Shown one piece after another: positions 17,096 through 62,665 of a stretch of 64,000 nt of DNA. The DNA comes from a virus. Its lineage: Duplodnaviria > Caudoviricetes. Where the stretch lies: IMG/VR virus record IMGVR_UViG_3300014205_000174, one strand, 5' to 3'. The stretch's first letter is position 1; every line of letters begins with the position of its first letter. The translations under genes were made by a program, and so were the position numbers. A model generated the notes under the pieces. It saw only the letters and a list, made by a program, of their open reading frames with translations, searched no databases and was not told the origin of the DNA.

Positions 17096-17097
17096 TC

Positions 17098-19595: not shown

Positions 19596-19626
19596 TGACG
19601 ATTGTATATTTAATTGAAAACTTTTC

Positions 19627-20007: not shown

Positions 20008-20028
20008 ATCTTATGCTTTTTTGTTTTT

Positions 20029-20469
20029 TTATAATCCACCATCCCTTGCATTGCGCCTTGCTCTATAACCTCCGTCAAGCGGGTGTAGCATTCGCTCATA
20101 CCTTCTATGCATGGCACCGGCGTCAACACGCTTCCCTTTCGGCTCTGTAATGATGGGTGCAATATTTGTTGGAATGGCAAACCCATTGTACAGAGCAAAT
20201 TCAATTTTCCCATCCTCTTCAGGGAAAGCCCAGTACAATCCCGGATGAATTGGAATAACCTTGGCAAATTTCCAAGCTAATTCAGCATCCCACCAAGCGT
20301 TCCACATAAGGTTACCACCAGCGTGACGCATTGCGTATGTCATTTTAAAGGGTGGCCGGACATCACCTTCCCGTATTTCTTTTACACCGTTAATGCTTCT
20401 TATAAGATATCCCTTGTTTGCCATACTAAAACATAATTCTGGTAAAATATTAAACTCCCTGTTTTCCAA
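20029..20469 (-). CDS. hypothetical protein
   Basis: 146-aa ORF. Confidence 0.6.
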   Translation of the reverse strand: MENREFNILPELCFSMANKGYLIRSINGVKEIREGDVRPPFKMTYAMRHAGGNLMWNAWWDAELAWKFAKVIPIHPGLYWAFPEEDGKIEFALYNGFAIPTNIAPIITEPKGKRVDAGAMHRRYERMLHPLDGGYRARRNARDGGL

Positions 20470-20473
20470 CTTG

Positions 20474-23596: not shown

Positions 23597-24348
23597 AATT
23601 CCATTTGGCGGTTTAAAATTGTCAGCAATTGGTGTTTCTTTAAATTATATAAATCCTTGTCAGTACGCGCCCAGTTAGACCCGTTCCTGAAATGAATTAA
23701 AAAATCTTCACAAAGCTGGAACGGGTCTGCTTCGTTATATTGACCAGCTATTTGTTCTGTCAAAATATCCATATTGCCATGCTCCTGAGCTATGTTCACC
23801 AGGTTAAATGCCTTTATTTTAAGCTCGGGGTGCGCGGCAATATAATGATACCAGTTGCCACCCGAATCGCAGTCCGTGCCATATATTTTTTCTCCAACAA
23901 AATCAACAGTTTGCCGGTCTTTAAGTGTATTATTGATAATCATAAACCCCGGATGGAAGTATTGTATTTCTTCGCCACCCTGCCCAATCCTCGCCTGCAT
24001 GATACCACTAATGTCATGTTGCAAATCACAGCAAAATTCTTTAATCGGAAACATATCGTGGTCAATGATGATGTTTATGTCGTTGCTGCCTGCAATATAA
24101 TTTTTCCATATCCAATTAAGGGCCGTCTGGTGTGCATGGCCGCCTTGCCTGAAATCTGTTGGTGGAACCAGGTAATCAATACCAAGCTCTCTGGCCTTCC
24201 GCTCTATTGCTTCTTTTTCGGAAATATTATCAAAGGCATTATTGACACATATCAGCTTGTGCTCTTCCTTTAAAAATCTGCCGAAGGTCACAAATTGATA
24301 GTGCAGAAAATCAGCGTCATTAAATTGTATAGTGTAGATGTTCACCAT
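23593..24348 (-). CDS. putative GT-A glycosyltransferase
   Basis: IIDHDMF (DxD); lies in the glycan cluster. Confidence 0.55.
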   Translation of the reverse strand: MVNIYTIQFNDADFLHYQFVTFGRFLKEEHKLICVNNAFDNISEKEAIERKARELGIDYLVPPTDFRQGGHAHQTALNWIWKNYIAGSNDINIIIDHDMFPIKEFCCDLQHDISGIMQARIGQGGEEIQYFHPGFMIINNTLKDRQTVDFVGEKIYGTDCDSGGNWYHYIAAHPELKIKAFNLVNIAQEHGNMDILTEQIAGQYNEADPFQLCEDFLIHFRNGSNWARTDKDLYNLKKHQLLTILNRQMEL

Positions 24349-24983
24349 CAGGTATAAATTATTTTAGTTTTAAACAATTCACGGTGCAGGGCTGTTTTTT
24401 TATTGCTTATAAAGTCCTTATGAAACAACTCTAAATTCTCCTGCTCAAAATAGATACTGTCTATCTGGGATTTGAAAGAGGCCCGAAGTGTATTTATTTT
24501 TTCAGCATAGTAGCCGTCTATATCGATAAACACATCCGGCACCCAACTATGTAAAGAGCTTGATGTCCTGTATTCAAACACGGATATGGGCTTATTCCTC
24601 ACTAATGCCATAGAGGTATCATTTACAAGCCGGTGCTCGTAGTGTGAATCTTCACCGGACGGCACAAATATCGCATCGTATTTGTGTTTTCTTATTGTTA
24701 TGTTTTCAATAAGTGTTATTAGCTGCGCCTGATTCAGATTATCAAGCGACATGTTTTCCGGCATAATAAGGTTTATGTTTTTCATCCCGGATGTTTCCCA
24801 GAATAGCTGGACTTCTTTAATCCGTTCGTATGATGAGCTTATATCCGTAGACGTTCCGCAAGACAAACAAAATATATCAAAGGCTGTGCCCTTAAACCTG
24901 TTGATGGTGCCGGACATAGAATATTCCACGTCATCCGGATGTGGTGACAAACAAAGTACCCTATCAAACCCAAATAGTTTCAT
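24348..24983 (-). CDS. PIG-L/LmbE family deacetylase
   Basis: SPHPDDVE, DSHYEH. Confidence 0.88.
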   Translation of the reverse strand: MKLFGFDRVLCLSPHPDDVEYSMSGTINRFKGTAFDIFCLSCGTSTDISSSYERIKEVQLFWETSGMKNINLIMPENMSLDNLNQAQLITLIENITIRKHKYDAIFVPSGEDSHYEHRLVNDTSMALVRNKPISVFEYRTSSSLHSWVPDVFIDIDGYYAEKINTLRASFKSQIDSIYFEQENLELFHKDFISNKKTALHRELFKTKIIYT

Positions 24984-24988
24984 TATGC

Positions 24989-25834
24989 CTATTTTCTGTT
25001 TAAGTTAAAAATAAACCCCTGGGGGGCATAAATCCTGATACCGTATCTCCTTAAAAAATCCCTGAAAGCATCAGTCACCTTATCATGATTGCCAGAATAG
25101 GTAAACTTTTCTATATCTACAGTAAGTTCATTTATTCTTATAACCGGATACTGAAAATCAATTACACATTCGGCATCATAAAAGCACATCAGCTCTTTGA
25201 ATTCCTGAACAATTTTACTGCTTATTCCTATTTTTTCATGCAGTGTCGGTTCTTCAATAAGCCTGATAAGTTTTGCCGGCGTACCGCCATAGATACCGCT
25301 TGCTGTTATATTTTTTACGACTGTTGCATTTGCGCCAATAACCACGTTATCCGTTATCTGCACTCCTGCCATCACCGTAGATTTCCAGCCCAGTATGACG
25401 TTATTGCCAAGCTTAATGCCCTCAAAGATAGCCGGATACCCTTGCAGGACGGAGTACCAGAACCCGTGTGTGATTAAATCTACATCGTGCGATAGCCCTA
25501 CATCATTACCTATTTCTACACCCCTGGCTAGATTTATCTGACCGGTATGGCATACGCACCTGTCTCCAATAGTTAACCTTGAAAATGGAAGGTTACTGCC
25601 GCCGCCGCCGATGTTCATACCGCCGTTATCTGTTGGCTTATTGTAAAAATAATCCCCAATAGTTAACTGTTCGCAATTTGCCTTAAACCTATCCCCGATA
25701 TAGCTATTGTGGCCTATCGAAAACAATCCCCGCACTTTGATATTTATATCAGTACCAAACTTTACATTGTTGCCTATGTTTATTTCATCGGCTTCAATGT
25801 TTACATTTTTTTCAGGTATAGTATACGTTTTCAT
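24989..25834 (-). CDS. hexapeptide-repeat acyltransferase
   Basis: Left-handed beta-helix repeats, VIGANATV, YGGTPAK. Confidence 0.88.
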   Translation of the reverse strand: MKTYTIPEKNVNIEADEINIGNNVKFGTDINIKVRGLFSIGHNSYIGDRFKANCEQLTIGDYFYNKPTDNGGMNIGGGGSNLPFSRLTIGDRCVCHTGQINLARGVEIGNDVGLSHDVDLITHGFWYSVLQGYPAIFEGIKLGNNVILGWKSTVMAGVQITDNVVIGANATVVKNITASGIYGGTPAKLIRLIEEPTLHEKIGISSKIVQEFKELMCFYDAECVIDFQYPVIRINELTVDIEKFTYSGNHDKVTDAFRDFLRRYGIRIYAPQGFIFNLNRK

Positions 25835-26478
25835 AATCCGCCGCTTATTTCTATGTTTTGACCAGTGATGTATTCGTTGTTGATAAGGTATTCTATGGTT
25901 GAATACAGTTCAGTTATCTCACCGAAACGCTTCAACGGTATTGAATCTTTTATGGCGTCCCTGTTCTGCGGTGACATGCTGTTACACATGCCGCCCCCAA
26001 AATAACCAAGCTGAATGCTGTTGCAGGTAATCCCTTTGGCAATATTTTCCGCACTGGCCGTTTTTATAATATTATCTATGAAAGCTTTAGAAGCGCTATA
26101 TACCGATGTGCCAACCACCGTCTTCCTGGCAAGTACTGAGGATACCAGTATTATCCTTCCGTAATTCTGTTGCCGCATTTTTTTCAGTGCACAAGCGATG
26201 ATATTTAAAGAACCGATAGCATTGACATTGATTACCTTAAGTATATTTTCTATGTTCTCCTGCCCGATTTTATGCAGAAAAGAATCATGATTAAATCCGG
26301 CAAGCCCTATAACAACTCCGGGGTTCGTAGTTGCGAAAAAATCCGCTACTTCTTTAAATTTTGTCACATCAACCTGTTGTGATGATGGGCAGACAACATC
26401 ATATTTGCCCGCCATCAGCTTTACAAGCTCTGTCCCAAGCCCGCCGGAGCCACCGAATACTACTGTTTTATTATCCAT
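25831..26478 (-). CDS. short-chain dehydrogenase/reductase (FabG-like)
   Basis: GGSGGLG, YSASK, IPLKRFG, YITGQ. Confidence 0.88.
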   Translation of the reverse strand: MDNKTVVFGGSGGLGTELVKLMAGKYDVVCPSSQQVDVTKFKEVADFFATTNPGVVIGLAGFNHDSFLHKIGQENIENILKVINVNAIGSLNIIACALKKMRQQNYGRIILVSSVLARKTVVGTSVYSASKAFIDNIIKTASAENIAKGITCNSIQLGYFGGGMCNSMSPQNRDAIKDSIPLKRFGEITELYSTIEYLINNEYITGQNIEISGGL

Positions 26479-27448
26479 TTAGGCAACTAAAATTATTATT
26501 AAAAATCATTTCTATCAAGTCATCCTTTCTCAGGCGTGCATTATATTCCGGGCCGCCCGTATCAGGGCAGGCATTAATCATCCAATATTTTGCTTTTTCA
26601 ATATCTATATCGCACCCATGGCCAAACTGGTACATCCATGATAGGTACAGCGAATTTAAACAAAAATCATTTGGATTTTTATCACTGTTCAGAAAAAAGT
26701 CAAAAGTATCTTTTGGGGACTTCATAAACATACCCAGAAACCCTTTTATGAATGACCCACCACAACTGCCTACAGAGCTGTCTTTGTTGGCGTAGATGAG
26801 ATTGCCTTCCGTTGGGTTCAGGAAGTCTATATACCAGTCAAGATGCCTTGCTGCATACGGAGCCATTACCCTTATAGTGCTCATTTGCAGCCTTTTAAAT
26901 TCAGGGCTTCTTGGAAACAATACAAACGTAGTGTCTATAGCATCAGAGGAATAAAATATATCATCCCTGTGATGCGTCATCCTGCGTTTATATAAAATCC
27001 TGCTTTCGGTTATCATCATACGCGACCTCAGTGCGTAATTTTCAGGAATATTTATGGCATAATGCGGGCCAACAGCATAATTATACCTGTCACACAATTC
27101 AATGAAGACCTCCAGTGTGTCGTGTTTAGCTATATCCATACAACAGTCACAATCAGATACAACAAAATAAGGTGTGCTATGATTGTCGAAATAATTTTTA
27201 ACCGCATTATTTATATTCTGCGTCAATTCATCCATTGTGAAAATCTTGGGGCCGGTAAATATTTTATATTCTTTCCCAAGCTCTTCAAGCAGCGCTACGC
27301 ATTTTTCATTATCAGTACCGTTATCAACTATTACCACATCATAGTCACCGGTAAAATGCTTATAGGATTCCAGTGTTTCGCTTAAAACTTCCAGTCTGTT
27401 AAATGTCACAACAAAAATGGCGACTCTTGGATTGCTTGGATTAAACAT
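26471..27448 (-). CDS. GT2-family glycosyltransferase
   Basis: VVTFNR, IVDNGT, VSDCD, IDTTF, ARHLDWY. Confidence 0.8.
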   Translation of the reverse strand: MFNPSNPRVAIFVVTFNRLEVLSETLESYKHFTGDYDVVIVDNGTDNEKCVALLEELGKEYKIFTGPKIFTMDELTQNINNAVKNYFDNHSTPYFVVSDCDCCMDIAKHDTLEVFIELCDRYNYAVGPHYAINIPENYALRSRMMITESRILYKRRMTHHRDDIFYSSDAIDTTFVLFPRSPEFKRLQMSTIRVMAPYAARHLDWYIDFLNPTEGNLIYANKDSSVGSCGGSFIKGFLGMFMKSPKDTFDFFLNSDKNPNDFCLNSLYLSWMYQFGHGCDIDIEKAKYWMINACPDTGGPEYNARLRKDDLIEMIFNNNFSCLNG

Positions 27449-27503
27449 GCTTTGGTTTTATTTTGGTTTTTAAAGAAGATGTTGACGATAAACAGATTTC
27501 AAG

Positions 27504-28034
27504 TTATTTTCTGAATATTAAAATCCGGTTATCATCCACATTATCGTATGGGCAAAATTTAACCAATGTATATGGGATACCAAGCGCATCAAAATGTGGC
27601 CGCTGTCCAGTCACAACGTCTTCAACAACCAGGATACCGCCCGGAACCATTCTTGGGTATACCATTTTGACAAAATCCACCTGCCTGAGCACATCATGCG
27701 GGCCGTCATCAATAGCTATGGTGAGTTCAGGTAATTCATCTGGATTAATATTATAAAAGTCCTTGACAATTACTGTCGCCCTGTCAAATTTTATTTCAGG
27801 GGGGACTATATCATACCCTATGATATTTGCATTAACGAAGTAGTCCTCAAATAATTTGATTGACCCGCCTTTCGCAGTGCCAACCTCCAGGATATTTATG
27901 GGGCTATTCTCCCATTTACTAAATAGCTCACCATATGTTGTTAAGTAATTATGGTGCGTGTCTTTGTCTGTTGGATAATAACCGAATCCCTTTGACCAAA
28001 ATAATTCTTTTAAACTCATGCTATTTTTTCCCAT
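27504..28034 (-). CDS. class I SAM-dependent methyltransferase
   Basis: TDK..HNY, LEVGT..GGS, IDDGPH, GGILVVEDV. Confidence 0.85.
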   Translation of the reverse strand: MGKNSMSLKELFWSKGFGYYPTDKDTHHNYLTTYGELFSKWENSPINILEVGTAKGGSIKLFEDYFVNANIIGYDIVPPEIKFDRATVIVKDFYNINPDELPELTIAIDDGPHDVLRQVDFVKMVYPRMVPGGILVVEDVVTGQRPHFDALGIPYTLVKFCPYDNVDDNRILIFRK

Positions 28035-28044
28035 TTTTTTATTT

Positions 28045-28959
28045 TTAAGGTAAGTATTCAAAAATAAGATTTATCCTGTTTATGTAAGTGTGATTGTTTT
28101 TTACTTCCTCCATTGCAGACAATATGTTTTCATTGACACTATCGCTATTAGCTGCCTCGATTGATTTATTGAATAAGTCAATGCTGTCTGGTGCATAAAT
28201 TATCTGGCCATCAAATATTCCATCGACGGTCTTACTGTTTGTTATACCAAGATTGCCATAGCTTATATTCTTAAAAATCCTGCACGTCACGTACTGATTG
28301 GTAACCTGCCATTCACCCTGAATAGTTGGCGCTAATTTTGAAGACCTGACCAAATCATAATTTTCTTCAAATGATACAGGCGAGCCCCACGGGTCAATTT
28401 TTATAACAGGAATACCCTTTGCAGTACACTGGTCAAAAAATGGCTGTAACTGTCTGCCATTCTGGAATGTTCCTGTGAAATCACCAAAAGTTCCTATCCA
28501 CACACACTGGTTAAATCTTGTTTTTGGTAAATCAAAATTAAATTCTCCCGGCAATAAGTTTGTTGCCCAGGGCATAAATACTATATCAGAGATTTCACCC
28601 TTCAGGTATCCGGTACAATTACTAAGCTTGATTATATTGTCGTAGGCGAATACATCCTTATTAAAAGTCTGTATTGAAAGTACTTTACAGCCCGCATCAA
28701 TATACTTTGCCGGATTTATATTATGCAAAATATATCGTGATGTTTTGTTAAGGGGGATATTTCGCTCCTGCCCTTCGAATGCAAAAAACAAACAGTCATT
28801 GAAATTTTCCGCACTATGGTCTTCCTCATCGAAATACCATTTCGCATCATAACCCATATGCTCAAATGCCTTTTTGAACCCGGCATAAATGAATGAATTA
28901 GTGTGCGAGTATAGTTTATAGCCCCACAGTATAATTTTATTGAATTTTCGCATTATCAA
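28045..28959 (-). CDS. putative GT-B glycosyltransferase
   Basis: Paralogue of 21343-22332 (WG.KL.SHT, MPWATNLLP, CRIFKNISYG, HTY.NRI). Confidence 0.65.
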   Translation of the reverse strand: MIMRKFNKIILWGYKLYSHTNSFIYAGFKKAFEHMGYDAKWYFDEEDHSAENFNDCLFFAFEGQERNIPLNKTSRYILHNINPAKYIDAGCKVLSIQTFNKDVFAYDNIIKLSNCTGYLKGEISDIVFMPWATNLLPGEFNFDLPKTRFNQCVWIGTFGDFTGTFQNGRQLQPFFDQCTAKGIPVIKIDPWGSPVSFEENYDLVRSSKLAPTIQGEWQVTNQYVTCRIFKNISYGNLGITNSKTVDGIFDGQIIYAPDSIDLFNKSIEAANSDSVNENILSAMEEVKNNHTYINRINLIFEYLP

Positions 28960-29561
28960 CCTTTTGTTTTTAAACTACTTAATCTGTAATAAAATAAAAT
29001 TTCTGGCAGTATTTTAAATGAAGCCTTTTTTTCCCTGATTCTTTTCCACAATGCAAAATCATCTTTCGGTATTTCATGTGACTTTAATTTATCGCGATAT
29101 TCCAGAAACTTTTTCGTATATCCACAAGCAGGATGCGCTATTATATTGTGATTTTTAGCAAACTCCGTGTCTATATTTAATAAATGAAATGCTGTACAAT
29201 AATCACTATCCAGTATTTGGTAATTACCGGATATTATTGGTATGTTAGCATCAAAAGCTTTTATTTGCAAATCAACTCTTTCGGGAAAATAAACATCATC
29301 AACATTACTATTCAATACAAAATCATAACCCATTCTGAATGCTATATCAACCAGCCGATTATGGGCCTGCGCATGGTCTGTTAGATATACAGAGCTAAAT
29401 ATAGAATTTTCAAAAATCCGCTCTTTACCACCACCATAATTCAACTCTAATATATCAAAATTAGTATACGTTTGGCTAAGTATCGATTTCTTATACGAAT
29501 ATATCCAATCTTCTGGATATCTGTTTATATTTTTATGAAACGATATTATGGCTGTTTTCAT
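28956..29561 (-). CDS. putative GT2-like glycosyltransferase
   Basis: SILSQTY.NF, NVDD, DDFALW, EILFYYR. Confidence 0.65.
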   Translation of the reverse strand: MKTAIISFHKNINRYPEDWIYSYKKSILSQTYTNFDILELNYGGGKERIFENSIFSSVYLTDHAQAHNRLVDIAFRMGYDFVLNSNVDDVYFPERVDLQIKAFDANIPIISGNYQILDSDYCTAFHLLNIDTEFAKNHNIIAHPACGYTKKFLEYRDKLKSHEIPKDDFALWKRIREKKASFKILPEILFYYRLSSLKTKG

Positions 29562-30316
29562 TTACGCATTTCTTCATGATTCTTACTCAATAAAAGTATC
29601 TTGCATTCATATCCTACACCATTCCATAAACTATATATATGTGGGTTGTTTTCTGGATAATGATACCCTGGACTAAGCACAACACTTGGTGGATTGTCTA
29701 TCATATATTTGTTCATCATCGATTCATCATGCCATACGGGTATTATACCATTTGATTCATCAATATCTATTAACCTACTACACTCGGCAGACATTTTGAA
29801 AAACTCATTATTGCTGAATGAATAAAAGCCACCTCCGAAATAATTCCTTTCCGTTCCTGGCACAACATACGCCTTTGATTCAGGTCTTGTTTCAAAAGAC
29901 CCCATGTTATTTACAAAACCACAATGCTGCACTACGGTTCTTTCACTTAAAACCTCAGTCCCTACCGGACTTTTTATTAATGTATCCGCATCTATATAAA
30001 TTATCTGATTCTGGGTTAGGCTTTCTTTGTATTTATTAAAATAGTGGAATCTATATAAGGTGGGGTATGGGAAAGGTTTATGCGCTACATTATGAAATGA
30101 ATAGTTATCTCCTATGCCATCTACGACCCATGATTTATCGCTAAATATGTGATAATGCTTTTTATTGTTTGGCAGGAAATATTTTTCTATAGAATTTATC
30201 AAGGGCTGTATATATATACTGTATTTCCCGGTAGCAACCAACACAAATCCTATAGATATATTATACTTATCGACCTTTTCTTCCCTTTCGTCAACAAGAG
30301 GATAATAATTATGCAT
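29558..30316 (-). CDS. GT6-family (ABO-like alpha-1,3-Gal/GalNAc) glycosyltransferase
   Basis: VATGKY, YIDAD, YFGGGF, WHDESMMNKY, LSPGY.YPE, K.H. Confidence 0.88.
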   Translation of the reverse strand: MHNYYPLVDEREEKVDKYNISIGFVLVATGKYSIYIQPLINSIEKYFLPNNKKHYHIFSDKSWVVDGIGDNYSFHNVAHKPFPYPTLYRFHYFNKYKESLTQNQIIYIDADTLIKSPVGTEVLSERTVVQHCGFVNNMGSFETRPESKAYVVPGTERNYFGGGFYSFSNNEFFKMSAECSRLIDIDESNGIIPVWHDESMMNKYMIDNPPSVVLSPGYHYPENNPHIYSLWNGVGYECKILLLSKNHEEMRK

Positions 30317-30356
30317 GTAGCGTGTTTTTTAGCGTTCTTCGGTAATTAAGGTAAAG

Positions 30357-30728
30357 TTAGTTTATGTGTTTTTTGCGTTCTTCCATCATTGCTTTGGCCG
30401 CCTTCCATGAATGCGCAACTATTTGGTCTGCCGTCAGTTTAGCGGCCAGTTTGTTAGCAAACATGCCTCGCATTGCATGTGCCGCCACAAAATCTAATGG
30501 CGTTATCCCAACATATCCACCGAAATGTAAATCTACTAATTCCCGCTCCGCCATCATTTTGTCGGCAACAGTATATGAATGCTTTACTATTTCCTGCATT
30601 TCTAATTCGTCGGCGCGGTTATTAGCGAACATACCGTCCATTGCGTGCGTTGCAAAGAAATCAAGTATCGACATGTAATCCCCGATGTTTGCCCAGTGCA
30701 TACCTCCGCCTGTTTTTTCTTTATTCAT
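30357..30728 (-). CDS. phage protein with tandem LDFxAxHAM.GMFAN...A..MM.ER repeats
   Basis: Two internal repeats visible in the translation. Confidence 0.7.
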   Translation of the reverse strand: MNKEKTGGGMHWANIGDYMSILDFFATHAMDGMFANNRADELEMQEIVKHSYTVADKMMAERELVDLHFGGYVGITPLDFVAAHAMRGMFANKLAAKLTADQIVAHSWKAAKAMMEERKKHIN

Positions 30729-31093
30729 AAAAAATATGTTATCGCAATGTAATTGCAAATCAAATGAAAAATATTGTCAACAATAATAAACAGCCAAGTA
30801 GACATCCAGACAGGCTTTGCATCACTGTATCCGTAATTACCACTACTCCAATTCCAGTTTACAAGTTTTATCCAGTATATAGGCAGCCTGTATTTGTCAA
30901 TGAGGAAGTGAGTACCGAAAATGATTGATGCAGCAGGTAATGATTGATAATAAAGTGCAAATGGTAGCGTGTAAGCCATGCAATGTACCATGCATGCAAT
31001 ATACCCACGCTCTGATTTTTGCGCTTTATTTACGGCCATCCAGTCATTCTGGAATAAGTAATCACCAATAAGATGCAGTAGTATCTGTATCAT
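30725..31093 (-). CDS. DUF3307 family membrane protein
   Basis: HLIGDYLFQ.DWMA..K, THFLID, DNIFH. Confidence 0.85.
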   Translation of the reverse strand: MIQILLHLIGDYLFQNDWMAVNKAQKSERGYIACMVHCMAYTLPFALYYQSLPAASIIFGTHFLIDKYRLPIYWIKLVNWNWSSGNYGYSDAKPVWMSTWLFIIVDNIFHLICNYIAITYFL

Positions 31094-31095
31094 AG

Positions 31096-31610
31096 TTACA
31101 AACCGAGTTTATATACCCATACGTTATGAAAATTGTCCATGAATTTCCTGCCATATCCGTACCTGCCGGTAAACAACCACCTTGCAGGAAGTACAATCAA
31201 TAACGATATCAGCCAGTAGATAAAGAAAAACAGCAACGTCAGTCTCCATGCAGGGTATTTCTGCGCCTCTTTTTCTTCGTAAAAGTAAAAAGGAGCCGAC
31301 CTGACCACCTCGTCGTTTTTCATTTTCTCTTTTTGATATGGCGTCAGGTCTAGGCTTTCGGCTAGCCATTTTTCGACATTGCCATCCCAGGCCTTCTTTA
31401 AGTTTGAAAATCTCATGATTTTGGTTGTTTTACATCTATGGCATTCAAAGTTGATGCTACATAACTCCTAAAAGATAAGCTGGCTCCGGGGCTTATAGCG
31501 CCGAGAATTATATCAACAACGCCTACCAGCACTATTAATGCCGCCAGCAGAAAATATGCCACAAAAAGCAGGGCCGAAATCAATATCATTACTTTCAGAA
31601 ATCCTTCCAT
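31096..31610 (-). other. two small membrane-protein genes (31096-31416, 31413-31610)
   Basis: Hydrophobic ORFs in operon. Confidence 0.55.
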
Positions 31611-31612
31611 AA

Positions 31613-32419
31613 TTATTCTACATTGTATATTTCAAAAACTCTTTGCACTTCTATTACTTCCAGCAGGTTCTCTCCGGCCCACATTACCTTTTCCGGGTAC
31701 TTCCAGTTCTTATAATACTCCACTATCCTGTCAACACCAGCCTCTGTAAAGAAGCGCCTGGACGAATGGTTCCAGAGTTTTTTCTTGATGTCTTTTCTTA
31801 CAAAGGACAAATGGTGCATTTGGCACTCTTCCCTCGCGAATATACGATAGCCGCCGCCGTTGGCCACATTATTCGTCTTACGGGTTGGGTCTATAGGCAC
31901 CTCACACGCAATGTTATATATATACTGCGTGTCAGGTGTTATTTTCTCTATAGTGGCCACATATTCCTGCTCCGGATACTTTAGCCGGTATATTGAATCC
32001 TTGTAGTACTGAAGATGCTGGCAGTAGCCCGTTGCATAATTACCTCGCTCCATTTCTTCTTTCATGAACCGGAACTGCTCGTCAGTATAAAACTCATCGC
32101 AGTCTATGGTTAGATGATGAGTGCACCCAACCTCCCTAGATATCTCCAGCCCGATGTTGCGCTTCTTGGTCTCATTCAGGGAGGCATTTTCCCCGCCGGT
32201 GTTCTGAATGTCTGGTTCATAGATATGCAGCCTGTCGATAAGCCCCTCATCGCGCAGTCTCCGCAATAAAGGCTCAAGGCCCTCATTACACTGTTCGCCA
32301 TGGTTGGATATCTTCTGGTAGACCACAGATACATAGTTTACATTATTACGAATACTCTTTATCGAGTGCTCTAATAATTCTTCGCCGTCGAAAAGGCTGT
32401 ATGAGGCACCAAGTTTCAT
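31613..32419 (-). CDS. putative GT-A glycosyltransferase
   Basis: ETKKRN.GL, TIDCDEFY, MHHLSFVR. Confidence 0.6.
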   Translation of the reverse strand: MKLGASYSLFDGEELLEHSIKSIRNNVNYVSVVYQKISNHGEQCNEGLEPLLRRLRDEGLIDRLHIYEPDIQNTGGENASLNETKKRNIGLEISREVGCTHHLTIDCDEFYTDEQFRFMKEEMERGNYATGYCQHLQYYKDSIYRLKYPEQEYVATIEKITPDTQYIYNIACEVPIDPTRKTNNVANGGGYRIFAREECQMHHLSFVRKDIKKKLWNHSSRRFFTEAGVDRIVEYYKNWKYPEKVMWAGENLLEVIEVQRVFEIYNVE

Positions 32420-32497
32420 GTATGTTTTGTTTAATGTTTAAATTTATTCGGGAACTTTTGTCTCTGTGTCGTCAGGGGAAACGCTATTGGCCGGGAC

Positions 32498-33601
32498 TTA
32501 CGGCTTCGATAATTCAAGCCTGGGGTAAACATTAATAGTCACTTCCGTTTCAGGGAGCAGGTCGAATTCCAGTCTCGATAATCCATCCATCCGGTAGTTG
32601 TAGATGATGTTGTTAACGCCATTAGCTATGTCTACCGCCGTACCATCATCACAAACCAGCCTTTGATACGAATCTTTTTTGTTTATAATCCGACTTTTGT
32701 ACTGTCCACAACTATCCGCTGTGACATATGTGACTTGTTGAACCAATTGCAGTTTATTTGCGGATGTCAATTGCGTAAAGACAACATCAAACGGCCTGAC
32801 ATTGGAGTTATTAAGGATTTCATGATAACTCCTTCTTGAATCATTCGATGATATCGTACTCAATACTACCCCTTCTTTGGTTTTAACCGTGATGCCATTT
32901 GCATCATTGGCAACAAGAGGAGAATTATTATATAGCGCTGTCACAGCATGAAAAATACGGAAATCTTTAATCACTTTATTTGAATGATTCTGCACACAAA
33001 TAGAATATGGAATCCCTAGACTTTTCACATCTGCGGCATGCTGCATCACTGGTGGCATATCTAGCAACTCACTGTCTTCCTGAATATCCGCAAGCGTTAC
33101 AATAACCTCCGAGTTCGCCAAGACGCCGTCAAATCTTAACGAAATCCATACATATGGAGTGACGTCAATCTTCACCCCAACAACTTTTTTACTGTTTTGA
33201 GGAGCGGTATTAATCCTGTTGAATGTCGTTGGGGCAGCACCTGCATTATTGCTCCCAGCCATACTTGAGTCGATTGATTCAAATACCGGTAACACGTGAC
33301 GAATGTCCTGGTCGGCCTCAACGCCAACGTCATACCTATGTATAAGGCGATAAGGAATTGCCTTATCAATTATTAAATTGCAGTGAAATGCGCGGCCTTG
33401 ACAAAGCGCTATAAGCGCCTCAAAAGACAAGCCTTCTATATCAGATTCTATAATTATCCCGTCTTTATTCTGATTAACAATGTCTGTATCCCAGGCCGAT
33501 TCGTCTATAGCCATGTTATACAAGGCCAGTGTCACGTCATTAATATCCCTATCCGTAGTGTTTCTGATTTTGAACCGAAGTTCTTTTGGTAAGTTTTGCA
33601 T
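32498..33601 (-). CDS. hypothetical protein, probably two homologous halves
   Basis: FKIRNTT..DI / CVQNHS..VI and LRFDGVLANSEV / LEFDLLPETEV. Confidence 0.65.
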   Translation of the reverse strand: MQNLPKELRFKIRNTTDRDINDVTLALYNMAIDESAWDTDIVNQNKDGIIIESDIEGLSFEALIALCQGRAFHCNLIIDKAIPYRLIHRYDVGVEADQDIRHVLPVFESIDSSMAGSNNAGAAPTTFNRINTAPQNSKKVVGVKIDVTPYVWISLRFDGVLANSEVIVTLADIQEDSELLDMPPVMQHAADVKSLGIPYSICVQNHSNKVIKDFRIFHAVTALYNNSPLVANDANGITVKTKEGVVLSTISSNDSRRSYHEILNNSNVRPFDVVFTQLTSANKLQLVQQVTYVTADSCGQYKSRIINKKDSYQRLVCDDGTAVDIANGVNNIIYNYRMDGLSRLEFDLLPETEVTINVYPRLELSKP

Positions 33602-33794: not shown

Positions 33795-33902
33795 TGTGTG
33801 TGATGTGATTTTTATGAATTCACTTTCCTTGTTTGTTGCACCTACTTTTTCATGCTTTAATTTCGTCTCCTTACCAAGGATAGTCAGGTAAGAGAGCGCA
33901 GT

Positions 33903-34190
33903 GTTGTAACTACCTTTTGAATGACCTGCAATTATAGTATTGCGACTTATTGTCTGGTTACTTAGTTCTAAAGGGTTGTAACTACCTTTTAAATTACCGA
34001 CTCTCACAACTAAATTTACCGCCAGGGGTTTTATTGTCCAGTTGTAACTACCTTTCAAATTAGGGCCTGCTACAACACATATTTTAATTGCCTGTTTGCA
34101 ATAGTAGTTGTAACTACCTTTCAAATTAGGGCCTTTTACAACTACTGACAGGGTAGCTATCATCTATCAGTTGCAACTACAACTACCTTA
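33903..34190 (-). CRISPR. mini CRISPR array 3 (half repeat, three full 36-nt repeats, one degenerate)
   Basis: Repeats at 34107-34142, 34041-34076, 33975-34010 and 33903-33938, e.g. GTTGTAAAAGGCCCTAATTTGAAAGGTAGTTACAAC; spacers 27-30 nt. Confidence 0.9.
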
Positions 34191-34295
34191 AAAGGCAAAT
34201 ATTTTAAAAAATAAAAAAAGTATTCGGGAGTGGCTAATAATCCCTCCCGCCAAGGACGTACAACCGCCCCACAAAATATTATGTCAAAGAACTTA
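34170..34295 (-). ncRNA. tracr/omegaRNA-like scaffold, copy 3
   Basis: Near-identical to 59107-59232 and 59694-59818; differences fall in the CGGGAG/CTCCCG loop and the linker. Confidence 0.8.
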
Positions 34296-47969: not shown

Positions 47970-48041
47970 GCGCACGTAGTTTAATGGATAGAACTCGGGC
48001 TTCGGAGGCCGGCAGTTTGGGTTCGATTCCCAACGGGCGTA
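47970..48041 (+). tRNA. tRNA-Arg-like gene with irregular anticodon arm (possible pseudo-tRNA)
   Basis: Acceptor GCGCACG/CGGGCGT, D arm GTTT-AATGGATA-GAAC, T arm TTGGG-TTCGATT-CCCAA; imperfect anticodon arm; no encoded CCA. Confidence 0.65.
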
Positions 48042-48151
48042 CTATGTCACAAATGTAGGAAGTTGTATTTATGTGACCAAATAAAAATCATTGTTCATAA
48101 TTTCCAAAATAACTGGAAATATTTTTACTATTTCCAATAAAATGCACAAAT

Positions 48152-48168
48152 CTGGCACGCAATTTGAA
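48152..48168 (+). promoter_or_regulatory. sigma54-like motif upstream of the transposase (TTGA variant)
   Basis: CTGGCACGCAATTTGAA. Confidence 0.45.
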
Positions 48169-48197
48169 ATATATTGTTCACATACACGCACTAAGAA

Positions 48198-49082
48198 ATG
48201 AACAGGTTAAGCATTGCAGACAGGACTAAGATAGTTAGATTGTTGGTTGAGGGTAATTCTCTCCGTTCCTGCTCCCGGATAATGGACGTATCCATAAACA
48301 CAGTAACCAAGTTACTGGAAAAGGTAGGTGCCGCCTGCCTGAAGTTCCACCACGAGACCGTTATAAACGTGCCTGCAAAGCGGGTTGAATGTGATGAGAT
48401 TTGGTCGTTTGTCTACGCCAAAGAGAAAAACGTACCGTATTGCACTAAGCACGATGACACCAAAGTTGGCGATGCATGGACATTCGTAGGAATGGACGCT
48501 GATACCAAACTGGTTGTTTCCTGGCTTGTAGGTTGCAGGGATGCTATATCCGCAAATGATTTTATGCTGGAAGTATCAGCGAGGCTGCGCAACAGGGTGC
48601 AGCTTACTACCGATGGCTTTAAGCCTTACCTGAGAGCAGTAGAAACTGCATTTGATGATGAAATAGACTTTGCCCAGCTAATCAAGATTTACGGAGCCCC
48701 GGAAGGTAATGGTACGGAGAAAAGGTATAGTCCGGCAAAGTGTACAGGAATCGAAACTAAGCGGGTGTCTGGCGACCCAGACCCAGCATTCATATCTACC
48801 AGCTACATAGAGCGTCAAAACCTCACTATGCGTATGCAAATGCGTCGCTTTACGCGTTTGACCAATGGCTTCTCAAAGAAGATGGAAAACCATTGCCACG
48901 CTATAGCGCTGCACTTTGTTTACTGCAACTTTGTAAGAAGGCATACAACCCTGCGCGTAACACCAGCTATGGCAGCAGGATTAACAGACCGCTTTATGAA
49001 GCTTGAGGATATTGTATGCATGGCTTATGCTGATGAAATAGCACAGGAAGAAAAAATCAGAGCCAGATATAGGAGGGCGTAA
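48198..49082 (+). CDS. IS1-family DDE transposase
   Basis: N-terminal HTH (EGNSLRS..RI..VSINTV), ECDEIWSFV, TTDG, YIERQNLTMR..RRFTRLTNGFSKK. Confidence 0.92.
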   Translation: MNRLSIADRTKIVRLLVEGNSLRSCSRIMDVSINTVTKLLEKVGAACLKFHHETVINVPAKRVECDEIWSFVYAKEKNVPYCTKHDDTKVGDAWTFVGMDADTKLVVSWLVGCRDAISANDFMLEVSARLRNRVQLTTDGFKPYLRAVETAFDDEIDFAQLIKIYGAPEGNGTEKRYSPAKCTGIETKRVSGDPDPAFISTSYIERQNLTMRMQMRRFTRLTNGFSKKMENHCHAIALHFVYCNFVRRHTTLRVTPAMAAGLTDRFMKLEDIVCMAYADEIAQEEKIRARYRRA

Positions 49083-56127: not shown

Positions 56128-56144
56128 TTGGCACGGGATTTGCA
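56128..56144 (+). promoter_or_regulatory. sigma54-type promoter heading the operon that ends in dCas12f-like gene and arrays
   Basis: TTGGCACGGGATTTGCA. Confidence 0.8.
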
Positions 56145-57942: not shown

Positions 57943-59094
57943 ATGGCTGAAAAACGTATAGTTATTACCCGGAAAGTAAAAATAGACTTTGACGTTGCCG
58001 ACAAGGCCGCATTAAAGGAGTGCTATAATACCGTGTTCTCATGGAACCGGATAGTGCACAAGGCCGCAAACTGGATAATCACGCACCAGTACATGCAGGA
58101 AAACGTAAAGGACTTCTTCTACATTACAGATGCGATAAAGCTGAAGCTGGCCAACATCGACAAAGACGAGGACGGCATACTCACCACCAGCAAGGACAAT
58201 ACCACCTACCAGTTGCTTAGCAAAGCATTTAAGGGGGAATGCCCGATGGGTATGCTATCCGGCCTTAATACGGTTGTGTGCAAGAAATACAAGTCCGATG
58301 CCTTCAAAATAAAGAAAGGCGAAGTCTCCCTTGCCTCTTACCGCAGAAATATCCCTATGCCCATCCGGAGCGCGGATATCTCTTCCTGGGAAAAGCAAAG
58401 TGATGGCAACTATTCATTTTTCGTATACGGCCTGGCTTTCAAAACATGGTTTGGCAAAGACCTGAGCGACAACCAGTCAATATTCGACCGCGCACTGCAA
58501 ACCGGCGAGTATAAGCTTTGTGATTCATCCTTTCAACTGGAAAAGAAAGACGGTAAGTGGAAGATGTTTTTCCTGGCAGTATTCTCCTTTGACAAGGAGC
58601 TTGTTAAGGTGGATGAAAATAAAGCCGCTGTTTGCCGGCTTAGTATACAATACCCGATTGTTATTGCAGAAAAGAAAGACAAGTTCTGGCATATCGGCAC
58701 CGCTGAAGAATATATGCACCGCAGGCTGGCCATACGCGGCGCTTTACACAGGGTTCAAAAAGCCTGTAAGTATAATAAAGGGGGTAAGGGCCGGGACAAA
58801 AAGCTACATGCCATAGAGCGCTTTGAAGACGCTGAAAGCAATTACATTAATAGCCGCATGCACCTTTATAGCCGACAGCTAATTGATTACTGCATAAAGC
58901 GCGGTATCGGCAAGATTGTACTCGACAACTACAAGGAGGTTGTTGACAAGACACATCAGGAGAATGAGGAAAGTAAATTTTTGCTGAGCTCATGGAGTTA
59001 CTTTAATTTAGCTGATAAAATAAAATACAAGGCTGCAAAAGTGGGCATATTGGTGGAGATGGAAGGAGACCCGGAGCCCGAGCCAGTAATTTAG
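57943..59094 (+). CDS. nuclease-dead Cas12f/TnpB-like RNA-guided DNA-binding protein
   Basis: ITRKVKI N-terminus, GEVSLASYR..IPMP, LCDSS.Q; RuvC-I read as AVCRLSIQYP (no Asp), bridge helix KGGKGRDKKL, HLYSRQLID, RuvC-II IVLDN, WSYFNL..KI.YKA..GI.V then stop (no Zn finger or RuvC-III); scaffold and array follow directly. Confidence 0.85.
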   Translation: MAEKRIVITRKVKIDFDVADKAALKECYNTVFSWNRIVHKAANWIITHQYMQENVKDFFYITDAIKLKLANIDKDEDGILTTSKDNTTYQLLSKAFKGECPMGMLSGLNTVVCKKYKSDAFKIKKGEVSLASYRRNIPMPIRSADISSWEKQSDGNYSFFVYGLAFKTWFGKDLSDNQSIFDRALQTGEYKLCDSSFQLEKKDGKWKMFFLAVFSFDKELVKVDENKAAVCRLSIQYPIVIAEKKDKFWHIGTAEEYMHRRLAIRGALHRVQKACKYNKGGKGRDKKLHAIERFEDAESNYINSRMHLYSRQLIDYCIKRGIGKIVLDNYKEVVDKTHQENEESKFLLSSWSYFNLADKIKYKAAKVGILVEMEGDPEPEPVI

Positions 59095-59106
59095 TTTGTT
59101 TTTCAG

Positions 59107-59232
59107 TAAGTTCTTTGACATAATATTTTGTGGGGCGGTTGTACGTCCTTGGCGGGAGGGATTCTTTTCCACTCCCGAATACTTTTTTTATTTTTTAATG
59201 ATATTTGCCTTTGTTTGAAAGGTAGCTACAAC
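59107..59232 (+). ncRNA. tracr/omegaRNA-like scaffold fused to half repeat, copy 1
   Basis: Hairpin GGGGCG-GTTGTA-CGTCCT with loop complementary to repeat end TACAAC; CGGGAG/CTCCCG stem; TGCCTTT anti-repeat pairing with AAAGGTA. Confidence 0.8.
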
Positions 59233-59460
59233 GGTAAGCCGTCGTCTACGGGCACTGTGAGTTGTAAATGACCAGGATTTGAAAGGTAGCTACAACCTTA
59301 GTCGCACAAAAGGGAGCGACCTGCATGGCTGTAAAAGACCGGAATTTGAAAGGTAGTTACAACAACCAGAGGATAACGGTTTCACGATATTGTGAATGAC
59401 CATAATTTGAAAGGTAGTTACAACGAATGGTAACGGTTTTACTTAAACAGAAAGTTGTTT
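59214..59460 (+). CRISPR. mini CRISPR array 1
   Basis: Half repeat ending 59232; 36-nt repeats 59261-59296, 59328-59363, 59389-59424; spacers 28, 31, 25 and ~29 nt; degenerate GTTGTT at 59454. Confidence 0.9.
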
Positions 59461-59461
59461 T

Positions 59462-59677
59462 ATGAATAATGTGCGAAAAATTGGTCGCTGTTTTAATGGG
59501 GCCGAAAGAGACGGAGGAAAGACGGTACATGCTATTGACTCCGAAAAGCCAAATGGAGACTGGTTTGGGAAGGCCGTTTGCGGAACAGAACCAGGGTATC
59601 GGGGAAACGGCTGGGCGAAAACAGATAAACCAGTAAGTTGTACACGGTGTATAAATAAAATGGCGAAACGCACGTAG
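59462..59677 (+). CDS. small Cys/His-containing hypothetical protein between cassettes 1 and 2
   Basis: 71 aa; VHA...AVCG...VSCTRC. Confidence 0.65.
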   Translation: MNNVRKIGRCFNGAERDGGKTVHAIDSEKPNGDWFGKAVCGTEPGYRGNGWAKTDKPVSCTRCINKMAKRT

Positions 59678-59693
59678 AGCGTGTGTGGCTTTT

Positions 59694-59818
59694 TAAGTTC
59701 TTTGACATAATATTTTGTGGGGCGGTTGTACGTCCTTGGCGGGAGGGATTCTTTTCCACTCCCGAATACTTTTTTATTTTTTAAGGTATTTGCCTTTGTT
59801 TTGAAAGGTAGTTACAAC
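59694..59818 (+). ncRNA. tracr/omegaRNA-like scaffold, copy 2
   Basis: Nearly identical to copy 1. Confidence 0.8.
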
Positions 59819-60092
59819 GATTAATAGTTCAAGTTCACTGATTTTTAGTTGTATAAGACCATAATTTGAAGGGTAGTTACAACACATAAGCTACTACAAG
59901 AAGCATTTTCACTGTTGTGAAAGACCCGAATTTAAAAGGTAGTTACAACGTACATTCATTGGGCTAAATTTTGATTTGGCTGTAAAAGACCCAAATTCAA
60001 AAAGTAGCTACAACTAAAGCAGTGATATAAAACATCATGGGCCTGTGTTCACGTTACGTGAACGACCATTAAACCAGTTTAAGTAGCTACAC
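59800..60092 (+). CRISPR. mini CRISPR array 2
   Basis: Half repeat ending 59818; 36-nt repeats 59848-59883, 59914-59949, 59979-60014; spacers 29, 30, 29 nt; degenerate end AAGTAGCTACAC 60081-60092. Confidence 0.9.
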
Positions 60093-60111
60093 CCAAAAAC
60101 AATAAGAACGA

Positions 60112-60642
60112 ATGAGAATAATATTCCTTGACATAGACGGAGTCTTAAACAGCCAGCTTTTTTACACTGAAAGAAGTCAATGCCAAAGGGCCAGTGATGG
60201 CGCAGGAGCCGACATTGACGAGCGGTGCGTTAATTACCTAAACAGCCTGATTGCAGAAACCGGAGCAAAGGTTGTGATAAGCTCCACCTGGCGGTCAGAT
60301 GGCCTTGAATATTGCAAGACGGCATTGGAGGCAAAGGGCTTTGTTGGCGAGATAATCGATGTCACTCCTCACTTACGCCACGAAGGCTGTCTCAGAGGCA
60401 ATGAAATCTACCACTGGATACAGAAAAACAGCGAGATGCTATGCGGGAGCACAAATGGCAGCGACTTCAAGGAATATGTAATATTTGACGATGATAGCGA
60501 TATGCTGTACTGGCAACGCAACAACTACATCCAGATTGACGCCTATTGCGGACTCACTCCGAATCAATGCTACAGGGCCAAATTTATTCTCTGCCGTGAT
60601 ATGACTTTCGGAGACAGTTTTGGAAATAATATAAAAAAGTAA
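60112..60642 (+). CDS. HAD-domain protein (Swiss Army Knife RNA repair-like)
   Basis: IFLDIDGVLN, VVISSTWR, RG.EI..W, YVIFDDD.DM, GLT. Confidence 0.88.
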   Translation: MRIIFLDIDGVLNSQLFYTERSQCQRASDGAGADIDERCVNYLNSLIAETGAKVVISSTWRSDGLEYCKTALEAKGFVGEIIDVTPHLRHEGCLRGNEIYHWIQKNSEMLCGSTNGSDFKEYVIFDDDSDMLYWQRNNYIQIDAYCGLTPNQCYRAKFILCRDMTFGDSFGNNIKK

Positions 60643-61344: not shown

Positions 61345-61361
61345 TTGGCACACTATTTGCG
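61345..61361 (+). promoter_or_regulatory. sigma54-type promoter
   Basis: TTGGCACACTATTTGCG. Confidence 0.7.
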
Positions 61362-62648: not shown

Positions 62649-62665
62649 TTGGCACGGGAATTGCT
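62649..62665 (+). promoter_or_regulatory. sigma54-type promoter
   Basis: TTGGCACGGGAATTGCT. Confidence 0.8.

Follow-up and report, generated by a model that had tools for sequence, protein, structure and literature searches.

A phage-borne dead Cas12f with three cassettes of scaffold-fused and arrayed guides, related to the dCas12f–sigmaE systems of Bacteroidota

Introduction

[quoted passage not shown] The same study contains a cluster of sigmaE-less dCas12f linked to CRISPR arrays (PMC13472631, Extended Data Fig. 1a,b); it also shows one Sphingobacterium locus in which full guides and discontinuous arrays occur together (PMC13472631). A scenario leading from Cas12f to sigma-TnpB has been proposed by Altae-Tran et al. 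2023 (PMC10691335). The sigmaE-less, array-linked dCas12f cluster (PMC13472631) and the fusion of tracrRNA with a half repeat (PMC10691335) are already in print. The example target in this prior work on the array-linked cluster is a chromosomal efflux promoter (PMC13472631; PMC10691335), and text searches of both papers returned no mention of a phage setting for these proteins. Phage-encoded, nuclease-dead repressors are known as TldR (PMC10705468; PMC13418256), which originated separately from TnpB, use one guide encoded at the end of the gene and have fliC as a known host target.

Here we compare with these systems a locus in the window, by which we mean the whole 64-kb stretch of DNA that was analysed, part of a phage-like 211-kb contig.

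Results

A sequence-only reading of this DNA had proposed a nuclease-dead Cas12f-like effector, to be checked by comparison with Cas12f1 and dCas12f. The gene in question is the last of a tightly packed plus-strand run, which begins behind a sigma54-type site (56129–56144), and none of the genes in the 8 kb preceding it was assigned a Pfam family.

57943–59094, plus strand: dCas12f gene; 383 aa, predicted to be nuclease-dead, truncated before the Zn finger and RuvC-III

Residues 5–369 of the encoded protein align with residues 5–360 of the 365-aa characterised dCas12f (PDB 9n9c_A, 'Nuclease-deactivated Cas12f', E 6.5e-81), making it a clear homologue, and sequence matches were also obtained to the active Cas12f 9nzo_B (E 6.8e-38) and, over the WED/REC and RuvC regions, to further Cas12f/TnpB structures (8hr5, 7wju, 8j12, 7c7l and others). 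In the alignment to active Cas12f, 'avcRLSIQYPi' of the window protein lies over 'vgvDLGINIPl' at RuvC-I and 'ivlDn' over 'iqmEr' at RuvC-II, so the Arg for Asp and the Asp for Glu that had been read from the letters are both borne out. Of the 506 residues of the nuclease, this alignment reaches only to about 415, so the window protein lacks the Zn finger (TNB domain) and RuvC-III, as had also been suggested, and neither the D-E-D RuvC triad nor the C-terminal Zn finger of the active nuclease is present. The RuvC-I Asp was found in 0 of 45 aligned relatives; because all 45 end just past an 'IKYKAxKxGI' motif, RuvC-III and the Zn finger have been lost family-wide. Judged from these alignments, the window protein is a dead derivative and not an active Cas12f, and like the dCas12f–sigmaE proteins it combines full-length homology to this family with the same C-terminal truncation before the Zn finger and RuvC-III, which removes part of the RuvC site. 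Three residues reported to contact the target-adjacent motif differ in the alignment to 9n9c (M85 to D, R90 to Q and H110 to T), and the motif may therefore differ from that of dCas12f–sigmaE.

A conserved non-coding block begins at 59107, 12 nt past the stop codon of the dCas12f gene, and has further copies at 59694 (98% identity over 89 nt) and at 34295–34200 on the minus strand; its start and its recurrence had been noticed in the sequence-only reading. Each copy opens a cassette of one and the same plan, consisting of a 5' box, a two-hairpin scaffold, a fused half repeat with guide, and then 3–4 full 36-nt repeats. Cassettes A and B lie 3' of the dCas12f gene, and cassette C lies at 34.3–33.8 kb on the minus strand.

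59107–59131, plus strand: 5' box of cassette A; all three scaffolds are preceded by an identical 23 nt, without a further copy in the window
59126–59199, plus strand: scaffold A; hairpin 1, hairpin 2 and a U-rich stretch (81.8 bits, E 3e-22)
59200–59260, plus strand: fused half repeat (third hairpin, ends at 59232) and guide A1 (59233–59260)
59261–59456, plus strand: mini-array A; repeats at 59261–59296, 59328–59363 and 59389–59424; guides A2 (59297–59327), A3 (59364–59388) and A4 (from 59425)
59462–59677, plus strand: 71-aa Cys-containing ORF, between cassettes A and B
59694–59847, plus strand: cassette B; 5' box, scaffold (59713–59786), half repeat ending at 59818 and guide B1 (59819–59847)
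59848–60125, plus strand: mini-array B; repeats at 59848–59883, 59914–59949 and 59979–60014; guides B2, B3 and B4
33800–34295, minus strand: cassette C, 24 kb off on the other strand; 5' box, scaffold (34276–34203) and fused half repeat; guides C1 (34169–34143), C2–C5 (firm) and C6 (doubtful); full 36-nt repeats at 34142, 34076 and 34010, and an additional degenerate repeat ending at 33903

Scaffold A, the fused half repeat and guide A1 form a natural single-guide unit, and the conserved 5' box probably acts as a promoter or marks where the RNA begins. Eleven copies of the 3' repeat half are present in the window, versus 0.04 expected by chance. Thirteen guides are firm (A1–A4, B1–B4 and C1–C5) and every one of them is different, which agrees with the at least 13 guides, all with different spacers, that had been assigned earlier to multiple scaffold-plus-mini-array cassettes. 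Two more guides (60093 and 33835) are doubtful; they follow degenerate repeat-like stretches, the first of which, at the tail of mini-array B, ends at 60092 and is followed by guide B5 running into a HAD-phosphatase gene (60112). Cassette C stands at the head of a minus-strand gene run that includes a glycan-synthesis block. The spacers are 25–31 nt long and all unique, as in a regular repeat–spacer array, whereas 14–16-nt guides have been reported for dCas12f–sigmaE. Degeneracy affects the 5' halves of the repeats, of which each array has just 3–4 in full. As stated before, the window shows no cas1, cas2 or cas4: no such domain was found in the ~45 window ORFs scanned (Pfam or PHROGs; small ORFs partly covered). 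The degenerate repeats and the lack of visible adaptation genes agree better with regulatory guides that are fixed than with a working immune array, and to this extent they count against the reading favoured below.

The structure of the scaffold RNA was evaluated with 15 scaffolds from 10 loci, in which 96.4% of the cells were consistent with pairing, compared with 41–46% when the partners were slid. Changes on both sides were observed at 8 of 13 scaffold pairs, covariation was present in both hairpins, and the observed covariation score was reached in none of 500 shuffles. The loop of hairpin 1 is complementary to the last six bases of the repeat, and it follows the guide-adjacent repeat end when that end changes (TTGTA loops go with downstream TACAA in 42 of 57 cases, CTGTA loops with TACAG in 6 of 9, foreign loop/repeat combinations reaching ~2–16%). 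A covariance model built from the phage-type scaffolds detects the guide scaffolds of sigmaE-linked dCas12f loci, and by this measure the window scaffold is homologous to those of the published dCas12f–sigmaE loci; in both, a two-hairpin scaffold comes first, then a short motif pairing with the loop of hairpin 1, and the guide at the 3' end. The earlier comparison with Bacteroidota dCas12f was thus right for the protein, which matches the solved one directly, as well as for the RNA. The conserved two-hairpin scaffold, which together with its 3' guide has the form expected of a cognate guide RNA, is ~100 nt long (~117–130 nt including the guide), and no Rfam family was found for it. Hairpin 2 and its T run were considered as an intrinsic terminator and rejected, as the terminator scan did not call them because five bases lie between the stem and the T run; the same stretch is also found inside the guide units of sigmaE-type loci, and the scaffold is not firmly taken to end at this point.

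Homology of both protein and RNA to a published activator raises the question of whether the phage protein could dock a sigma factor, be it a host sigmaE that has the special C-terminal domain or one encoded by the phage outside the window, and start transcription downstream of each guide target as in the Flagellimonas dCas12f–sigmaE system. Pairs of sigmaE and dCas12f that a phage might exploit are present in Chitinophaga, Sphingobacterium and Pedobacter genomes. Against this, the link to sigmaE, which is adjacent in 127 of 166 dCas12f loci, is confined to a separate part of the family: in a tree of 72 rows the sigmaE-adjacent genes form one clade (SH-aLRT 98), whereas the window protein lies outside it, in a fully supported group with L003, L005, L006 and P0023. 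An rpoE gene (sigmaE with C-terminal extension) in operon with dcas12f is absent from the window and its nearest relatives, and the sigmaE-less group has no protein-coding neighbour in common. The sequence-only reading had recognised no sigma gene nearby, and none was found by Pfam or PHROGs in the ~45 window ORFs (small ORFs partly covered), while a profile of 48 dCas12f-adjacent sigmaE genes gave a best E of 1.2 in the window and nothing in the loci of the nearest relatives. A sigma factor, or target sites, may sit in the other 147 kb of the contig. The published docking needs a C-terminal domain found almost only in linked sigmaE (PMC13472631; 10.1101/2025.06.10.658880) and reported not to occur beyond the sigmaE-linked clade (PMC13472631), and repression was suggested for the array-linked cluster (PMC13472631). 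The idea of a borrowed sigma factor, also raised in the sequence-only reading, is weakened by these results; we regard such activation as quite unlikely, and as less likely than silencing. Its general form, in which dead Cas12f would give Bacteroidota phages a programmable transcription factor able to dock sigmaE from the host or a sigma factor of the phage, with guides switching on host or phage genes without a promoter, we rate slightly lower again; were it true, the three cassettes would amount to a multiplexed activation programme for host take-over.

All relatives with more than 50% identity were found on metagenomic or IMG/VR contigs, and the top match among 185,579 species genomes had 47% identity. 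Two of the relatives, L090 (a 76.6-kb phage record, CheckV 100% complete, with terminase, portal and tail genes) and L085 (77.6 kb, rated 100% complete), have spacers nearly matching their own genomes, and it is in these two complete phages that arrays of 22 and 33 repeats occur. One L090 spacer matches its own terminase gene at 28 of 30 positions, both mismatches being synonymous, another matches the gene adjoining a tail gene (27 of 30, two of three mismatches synonymous), and one L085 spacer matches the gene immediately upstream of its own dCas12f (29 of 30). All three targets are on the coding strand and point towards the next gene, and two of them start exactly 174 bp before its start codon, an arrangement that is in favour of activation.

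These matches, one of them directly upstream of dCas12f itself, also point to self-regulation, in which the window guides would bind their own phage genome outside the window and time its expression or hold down the effector gene. Published dCas12f loci likewise include guides against their own locus (PMC13472631), the cassettes lie in leaders of downstream genes, and guide B4 has a 14/16 match within the dCas12f gene. On the other hand, ~0.5 matches of the B4 type are expected by chance, and no convincing self match was found in the 64 kb. Moreover, the mismatches in L090 fall at synonymous positions (guide positions 3 and 9, near the guide 5' end), a pattern that resembles a spacer from another allele and not one kept matched to its own gene. 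We take self-regulation to be fairly improbable. With regard to a source in other phages, the L090 and L085 arrays had no matches in deposited phages, and a rival phage with a perfect match to the L090 terminase spacer was not found, the nearest IMG/VR alleles matching at 19 of 30 positions.

The window's own 13–15 guides had no target in any of the data sets searched, the spacer search in phage and host genomes suggested earlier included. Matches were at chance level when the first 12–24 nt of the guides were compared with the 64-kb window at 0–6 mismatches, and likewise when the guides were compared as translated 8-mers (up to one mismatch) with the window and L001, L003, L005–L007, L085 and L088. 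Nothing better than E 0.3 was obtained against 50,697 deposited phage records, three related virus records gave no target, and exact 22-mers of guides A1 and A2 did not occur in IMG/VR. Matches crossing spacer–repeat borders or lying in T-rich scaffold stretches were dismissed. The Chitinophagaceae genomes searched numbered ~520 for cassettes A and B and ~400 for cassette C. Here guide B3 had a 26-of-29 match in one genome, to a site at the 3' end of a gene of outer-membrane type. Such a match would suit host take-over, in which guides silence host genes, for instance those for defence, surface receptors or competing pathways, while the phage infects or is carried; fixed and diverse guides with degenerate repeats and no adaptation genes seen suit it as well, and the repression of host flagellin by phage-encoded TldR is a precedent (PMC13418256). 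The B3 match is nevertheless borderline because ~0.02–0.2 are expected across the genomes searched, it was not recovered in 120 relatives of the matched genome, and the other guides had no credible match in these genomes, so that we hold host take-over to be unlikely. As no target was found for any window guide, the claim that the phage uses them to 'silence or redirect host or competitor genes' stays an inference.

Discussion

We favour, with a confidence a little above even, a binding-only, RNA-guided silencer directed against close rival phages or host genes as the best reading of this locus. If it behaves like its solved homologue, the nuclease-dead Cas12f would act as a dimer carrying one guide RNA. 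The three cassettes are probably separate transcription units; the product of each would be processed into one scaffold-fused single guide and several repeat–guide units, and for the latter the scaffold would have to be provided in trans, as a tracrRNA is. With its guide, the protein is expected to bind matching DNA without cutting it, and roadblocks at the bound sites would silence transcription and perhaps replication too; roadblock silencing appears likeliest because the locus lacks a linked sigma factor and falls within the CRISPR-array-linked branch. Silencing of plasmids without cutting has its precedent in Cas12m (cited in PMC10691335), and regulation by a phage-encoded dead protein in TldR, with host flagellin as target (PMC13418256). 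Close relatives among rival phages, or other mobile elements, would be the likeliest targets, with host genes in second place. The near-self spacers of L090 (terminase and tail-adjacent gene) and L085 support silencing of rivals, but they can also be read as self-regulation.

Binding-only type V interference is known from Cas12c, and virus-borne CRISPR mini-arrays are used against related viruses. The window protein resembles these and Cas12m in being a predicted RNA-guided, non-cutting binder with relatives whose spacers come near genes of near-identical phages, but it belongs to a different Cas12 lineage and its interference is putative. With TldR it shares a phage-carried, nuclease-dead, RNA-guided DNA binder as a putative regulator, but it derives from Cas12f and has at least 13 guides in three cassettes. 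Unlike the dCas12f–sigmaE systems, the window has neither a linked sigmaE nor an HTH gene, full CRISPR repeats follow each fused guide, and the setting is a phage. A further likeness is to the sigmaE-less cluster (PMC13472631), which also has nuclease-dead Cas12f adjoining CRISPR arrays, although the carriers here are phages and spacers of relatives nearly match terminase and a tail-adjacent gene. In the Cas12f-to-sigma-TnpB scenario (PMC10691335), a tracrRNA-like scaffold joined to a half repeat is exactly the proposed intermediate; these cassettes preserve in living form the proposed transition from a separate tracrRNA and array to one fused guide.

Until now, dead Cas12f proteins were known as gene regulators of bacteria; the window and its relatives place an entire branch of this family on phages, and some of these phages carry arrays of 20–33 spacers with near matches to packaging and tail-region genes. 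If silencing by binding only is true, phages would be using a silencing, non-cutting CRISPR tool to combat close relatives or to control their hosts. A 383-aa protein with a ~100-nt scaffold and natural multiplexing is also of interest for compact CRISPRi tools.

The 71-aa Cys-containing ORF between cassettes A and B was considered as the missing Zn-finger piece of the effector and rejected: no RuvC-III motif is present in it, and in the related phage contig L005 its homologue lies 6 kb from the module. The ORF is not bound to the module. A terminator-like hairpin (59668–59686) with a T run is found directly after this ORF.

Homology and predicted nuclease loss of the 383-aa protein

The ORF at 57943–59094 (+) encodes a protein of 383 aa, for which a Pfam search returned no family. 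When it was searched against the sequences of solved structures, 9n9c_A, 'Nuclease-deactivated Cas12f' (365 aa), matched window residues 5–369 with E 6.5e-81, and active Cas12f and TnpB proteins also matched, from 9nzo (E 6.8e-38) down to Cas14a.1. In the alignment with active Cas12f, the Asp of RuvC-I is replaced by Arg (avcRLSIQYP over vgvDLGINIP) and the Glu of RuvC-II by Asp (ivlDn over iqmEr), whereas the Zn finger and RuvC-III are absent, the match to the active enzyme ending near residue 415 of 506. The sequence-only reading had described the protein in these same terms and was right throughout. Among the 45 relatives aligned, the RuvC-I residue was R, H, N, Y, E, W, S, K, T, C, I or F and never Asp (0/45), and the C-terminus lay a few residues past 'IKYKAxKxGI' in all 45. 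Of the three catalytic positions, two have been lost or changed and one is deleted, so that the protein is predicted to be unable to cut DNA, and it is very probably an RNA-guided, non-cutting DNA binder of some kind.

The window has a second TnpB-like ORF (10130–11437, −, 435 aa) that is not closely related to the nuclease-dead Cas12f (dCas12f). It is probably an intact nuclease, because both OrfB_IS605 and Cas12f1-like TNB (Zn finger) domains are present.

Guide cassettes and scaffold RNA

A conserved block downstream of the dCas12f gene recurs twice, defining cassettes A, B and C:

59107 onward (+): cassette A, beginning 12 nt past the dCas12f stop codon; downstream, a 71-aa ORF
59668–59686: terminator-like hairpin with a T run, closing the stretch ahead of cassette B
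59694 onward (+): cassette B, block copy with 98% identity over 89 nt; downstream, a HAD phosphatase gene
34295–34200 (−): block copy of cassette C; downstream, a long minus-strand gene run

Each cassette is composed of a 23-nt box found at only three places in the window, namely the three cassettes; a two-hairpin scaffold that also has a U-rich stretch; a half repeat forming a third hairpin, whose 3′ end (...TACAAC) is directly followed by a guide; and three or four complete repeats of 36 nt, whose spacers measure 25–31 nt. The 3′ half of the repeat occurs 11 times in the window (0.04 expected by chance). We counted 13 firm guides, no two alike, and two more that are doubtful, in agreement with the earlier claim of multiple scaffold-plus-mini-array cassettes with at least 13 guides and no spacer used twice. 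Because of the terminator-like hairpin before cassette B, the cassettes look like separate transcription units, each of them continuing into the gene downstream of it. Guides A3 (59364–59388) and A4 (59425–59448) have a nine-base core, TAACGGTTT, in common at different offsets, and may be aimed at related sites.

In an alignment of 15 scaffolds from 10 loci, hairpin pairing was observed in 96.4% of cells, versus 41–46% when the 3′ partners were slid by 1–3 columns; changes on both sides occurred in 8 of 13 pairs, and none of 500 shuffles reached the observed score. As judged from this alignment, the scaffold is a real, conserved RNA, for which an Rfam search found no family. A guide-adjacent pseudoknot is expected in TnpB and Cas12f RNAs. 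Hairpin 1 has a six-base loop that can pair with the final repeat bases beside the guide, and loop and repeat end covary across loci (TTGTA loop with TACAA downstream, 42/57; CTGTA with TACAG, 6/9; TTGTG with CACAA, 10/25; foreign combinations, ~2–16%), so that they are predicted to form a pseudoknot of this type.

A covariance model built from phage-type scaffolds only detected 133 scaffold copies in the compared dCas12f loci, including tandem units downstream of sigmaE-linked dCas12f genes, in which the order is scaffold, short linker, ...ATACAAT and guide. This order makes the first unit of each window cassette the counterpart of the published dCas12f single guide of 85–105 nt (PMC13472631). 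The window differs from the published form in having full repeats behind that unit, which are ordinary CRISPR units without scaffold. In the long-array relatives L085, L087, L090 and L010, a single scaffold lies apart from the array, which has a leader of ~60–110 nt, and must therefore act in trans like a tracrRNA; by analogy, the later units of the window cassettes would likewise be served by a scaffold in trans.

Family position and linkage to sigmaE

A large protein search returned 131 relatives with E-values of 1e-10 or below, and those above 50% identity came from metagenome assemblies and IMG/VR contigs only. Among genomes taken one per species (185,579 species), the best match was a Chitinophagaceae MAG (47%), followed by 45% matches beside efflux genes and then by 37–42% matches in Sphingobacterium, Pedobacter, Chitinophaga and others, where a sigma factor of 250–300 aa, showing hits to sigma-70 region 4, is encoded directly upstream. 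With a profile made from 48 of these dCas12f-adjacent sigma factors, an adjacent sigmaE was found in 127 of 166 loci, and none in the phage-type relatives or in the window (best E 1.2); the absence of a recognisable sigma gene near dCas12f, remarked on earlier, is thus borne out. A tree of 72 rows (IQ-TREE in quick mode, with SH-aLRT as the sole support measure and a midpoint root, from which no order of events is drawn) placed 26 sigmaE-adjacent rows, plus a few from truncated contigs, in a single clade (SH-aLRT 98), next to the efflux-adjacent group. The window protein falls in the remaining part of the tree, which is sigmaE-less, and clusters there with L003, L005, L006 and P0023 at full support. 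No protein-coding neighbour common to the whole sigmaE-less group was found; the protein and its RNA genes make up the whole module.

This position bears on how the protein may act. By homology to the solved complex, guide and DNA target would be bound by an asymmetric dimer (10.1101/2025.06.10.658880). The truncated RuvC domain of the published activator is the docking site for a special C-terminal domain of the linked sigmaE, which is reported almost only from linked sigmaE factors (PMC13472631). Since the window's branch is without this partner, sigma-dependent activation of transcription is improbable here, and the simplest outcome of binding without cutting would be a roadblock. Such action has been proposed for the array-linked dCas12f cluster (PMC13472631) and, according to a citation in PMC10691335, reported for Cas12m. 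Sigma54-type TGGCAC-N5-TTGCW sites number 18 in the window against 2.55 expected, mostly directly upstream of genes (for instance 56129–56144, 61346–61361 and 62650–62665), and one heads the gene run ending with dCas12f.

Phage setting and carriers

The window belongs to a phage-like contig of 211,455 bases. Its virus-type or accessory genes include members of PHROG families (RtcB-type ligase, HNH and NUMOD4 endonucleases, endolysin-like protein, PAPS-reductase family protein), the intact-looking TnpB and the glycan-synthesis block; many small ORFs are family-less, and no hallmark structural genes lie within the window. The phage setting is firmer in the relatives: the L090 (76.6 kb) and L085 (77.6 kb) records are both 100% complete by CheckV, and the former encodes a terminase large subunit as well as portal and tail proteins. 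The three-cassette layout is also present at 7200–9300 of L092, a Chitinophagaceae MAG (495-kb contig, 47% identity), so that the branch is not confined to phages. There the repeats number 10, 2 and 4 per cassette, the 3′ end of the dCas12f gene is part of the duplicated units, the neighbours are ordinary ECF sigma and FecR genes, and the spacers gave no self match at E 0.05.

The glycan-synthesis block (~17 kb, 15100–32500, −), with cassette C at the head of that minus-strand gene run, encodes GT11 and GT6 glycosyltransferases, two GDP-mannose dehydratase-type proteins, epimerases, RgpF, a PIG-L deacetylase, a hexapeptide transferase and a short-chain dehydrogenase. The sole tRNA of the window, tRNA-Pro (CGG), adjoins an IS1-like transposase ORF (48198–49082; region 47970–49082).

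The dCas12f family, its sigmaE-linked mechanism, a cluster that is without sigmaE and adjoins CRISPR arrays, a proposed path from tracrRNA and half repeat to a fused guide, and phage-borne dead TnpB repressors are already known (PMC13472631, PMC10691335 and PMC13418256 jointly). In these three papers we found neither a phage setting for dCas12f, nor scaffold-plus-mini-array cassettes recurring at scattered positions of a 211-kb phage genome, nor phage arrays nearly matching packaging or tail-region genes.

Candidate targets

No target of the window guides was found in the 64-kb window, 50,697 deposited phage records and three related virus records, nor in Chitinophagaceae genomes (~520 for cassettes A and B, ~400 for C), and exact 22-mers of two guides gave none in IMG/VR. 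The first 16 nt of guide B4 match at 14 positions inside the dCas12f gene (58013–58028, +), 70 nt past its start codon. Chance alone would give about 0.5 matches of this kind in the window, and we regard this as a weak lead for auto-regulation.

Near-self spacers were found in relatives. An L085 spacer matches the gene immediately preceding dCas12f in L085 itself (29/30), and L090 spacers match its own terminase gene (28/30) and a 414-aa gene beside a tail gene (27/30). The two terminase mismatches, which lie at positions 3 and 9 of the guide, each fall on a synonymous third codon position, and two of the three in the 414-aa gene are synonymous, suggesting that the spacers derive from a slightly divergent allele, i.e. 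a very close phage relative. This fits rivalry of near-identical phages, the own copy being spared by mismatches near the guide 5′ end, and we lean towards silencing, aimed at rival phages or other mobile elements or at host genes, rivals being likelier targets than host genes. That the guides instead act on their own phage genome is less likely in view of the allele origin, yet such self-regulation keeps some probability, since no perfectly matching rival was found (L085 and L090 arrays against deposited phages; L090 terminase spacer against IMG/VR) and published dCas12f targets tolerate 2–3 mismatches in 16 (PMC13472631).

All three near-self protospacers occupy the coding strand and are oriented towards the following gene. 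In two cases (L085:5759–5788 and, in the phage of L090, L181:2001–2030) the protospacer starts exactly 174 bp before the next start codon, that of dCas12f and of an HNH endonuclease, respectively; this shared distance may be chance. Among other relatives, L009–L012 represent the same dCas12f locus in four metagenome samples, and the L011 copy is without the second of seven spacers.
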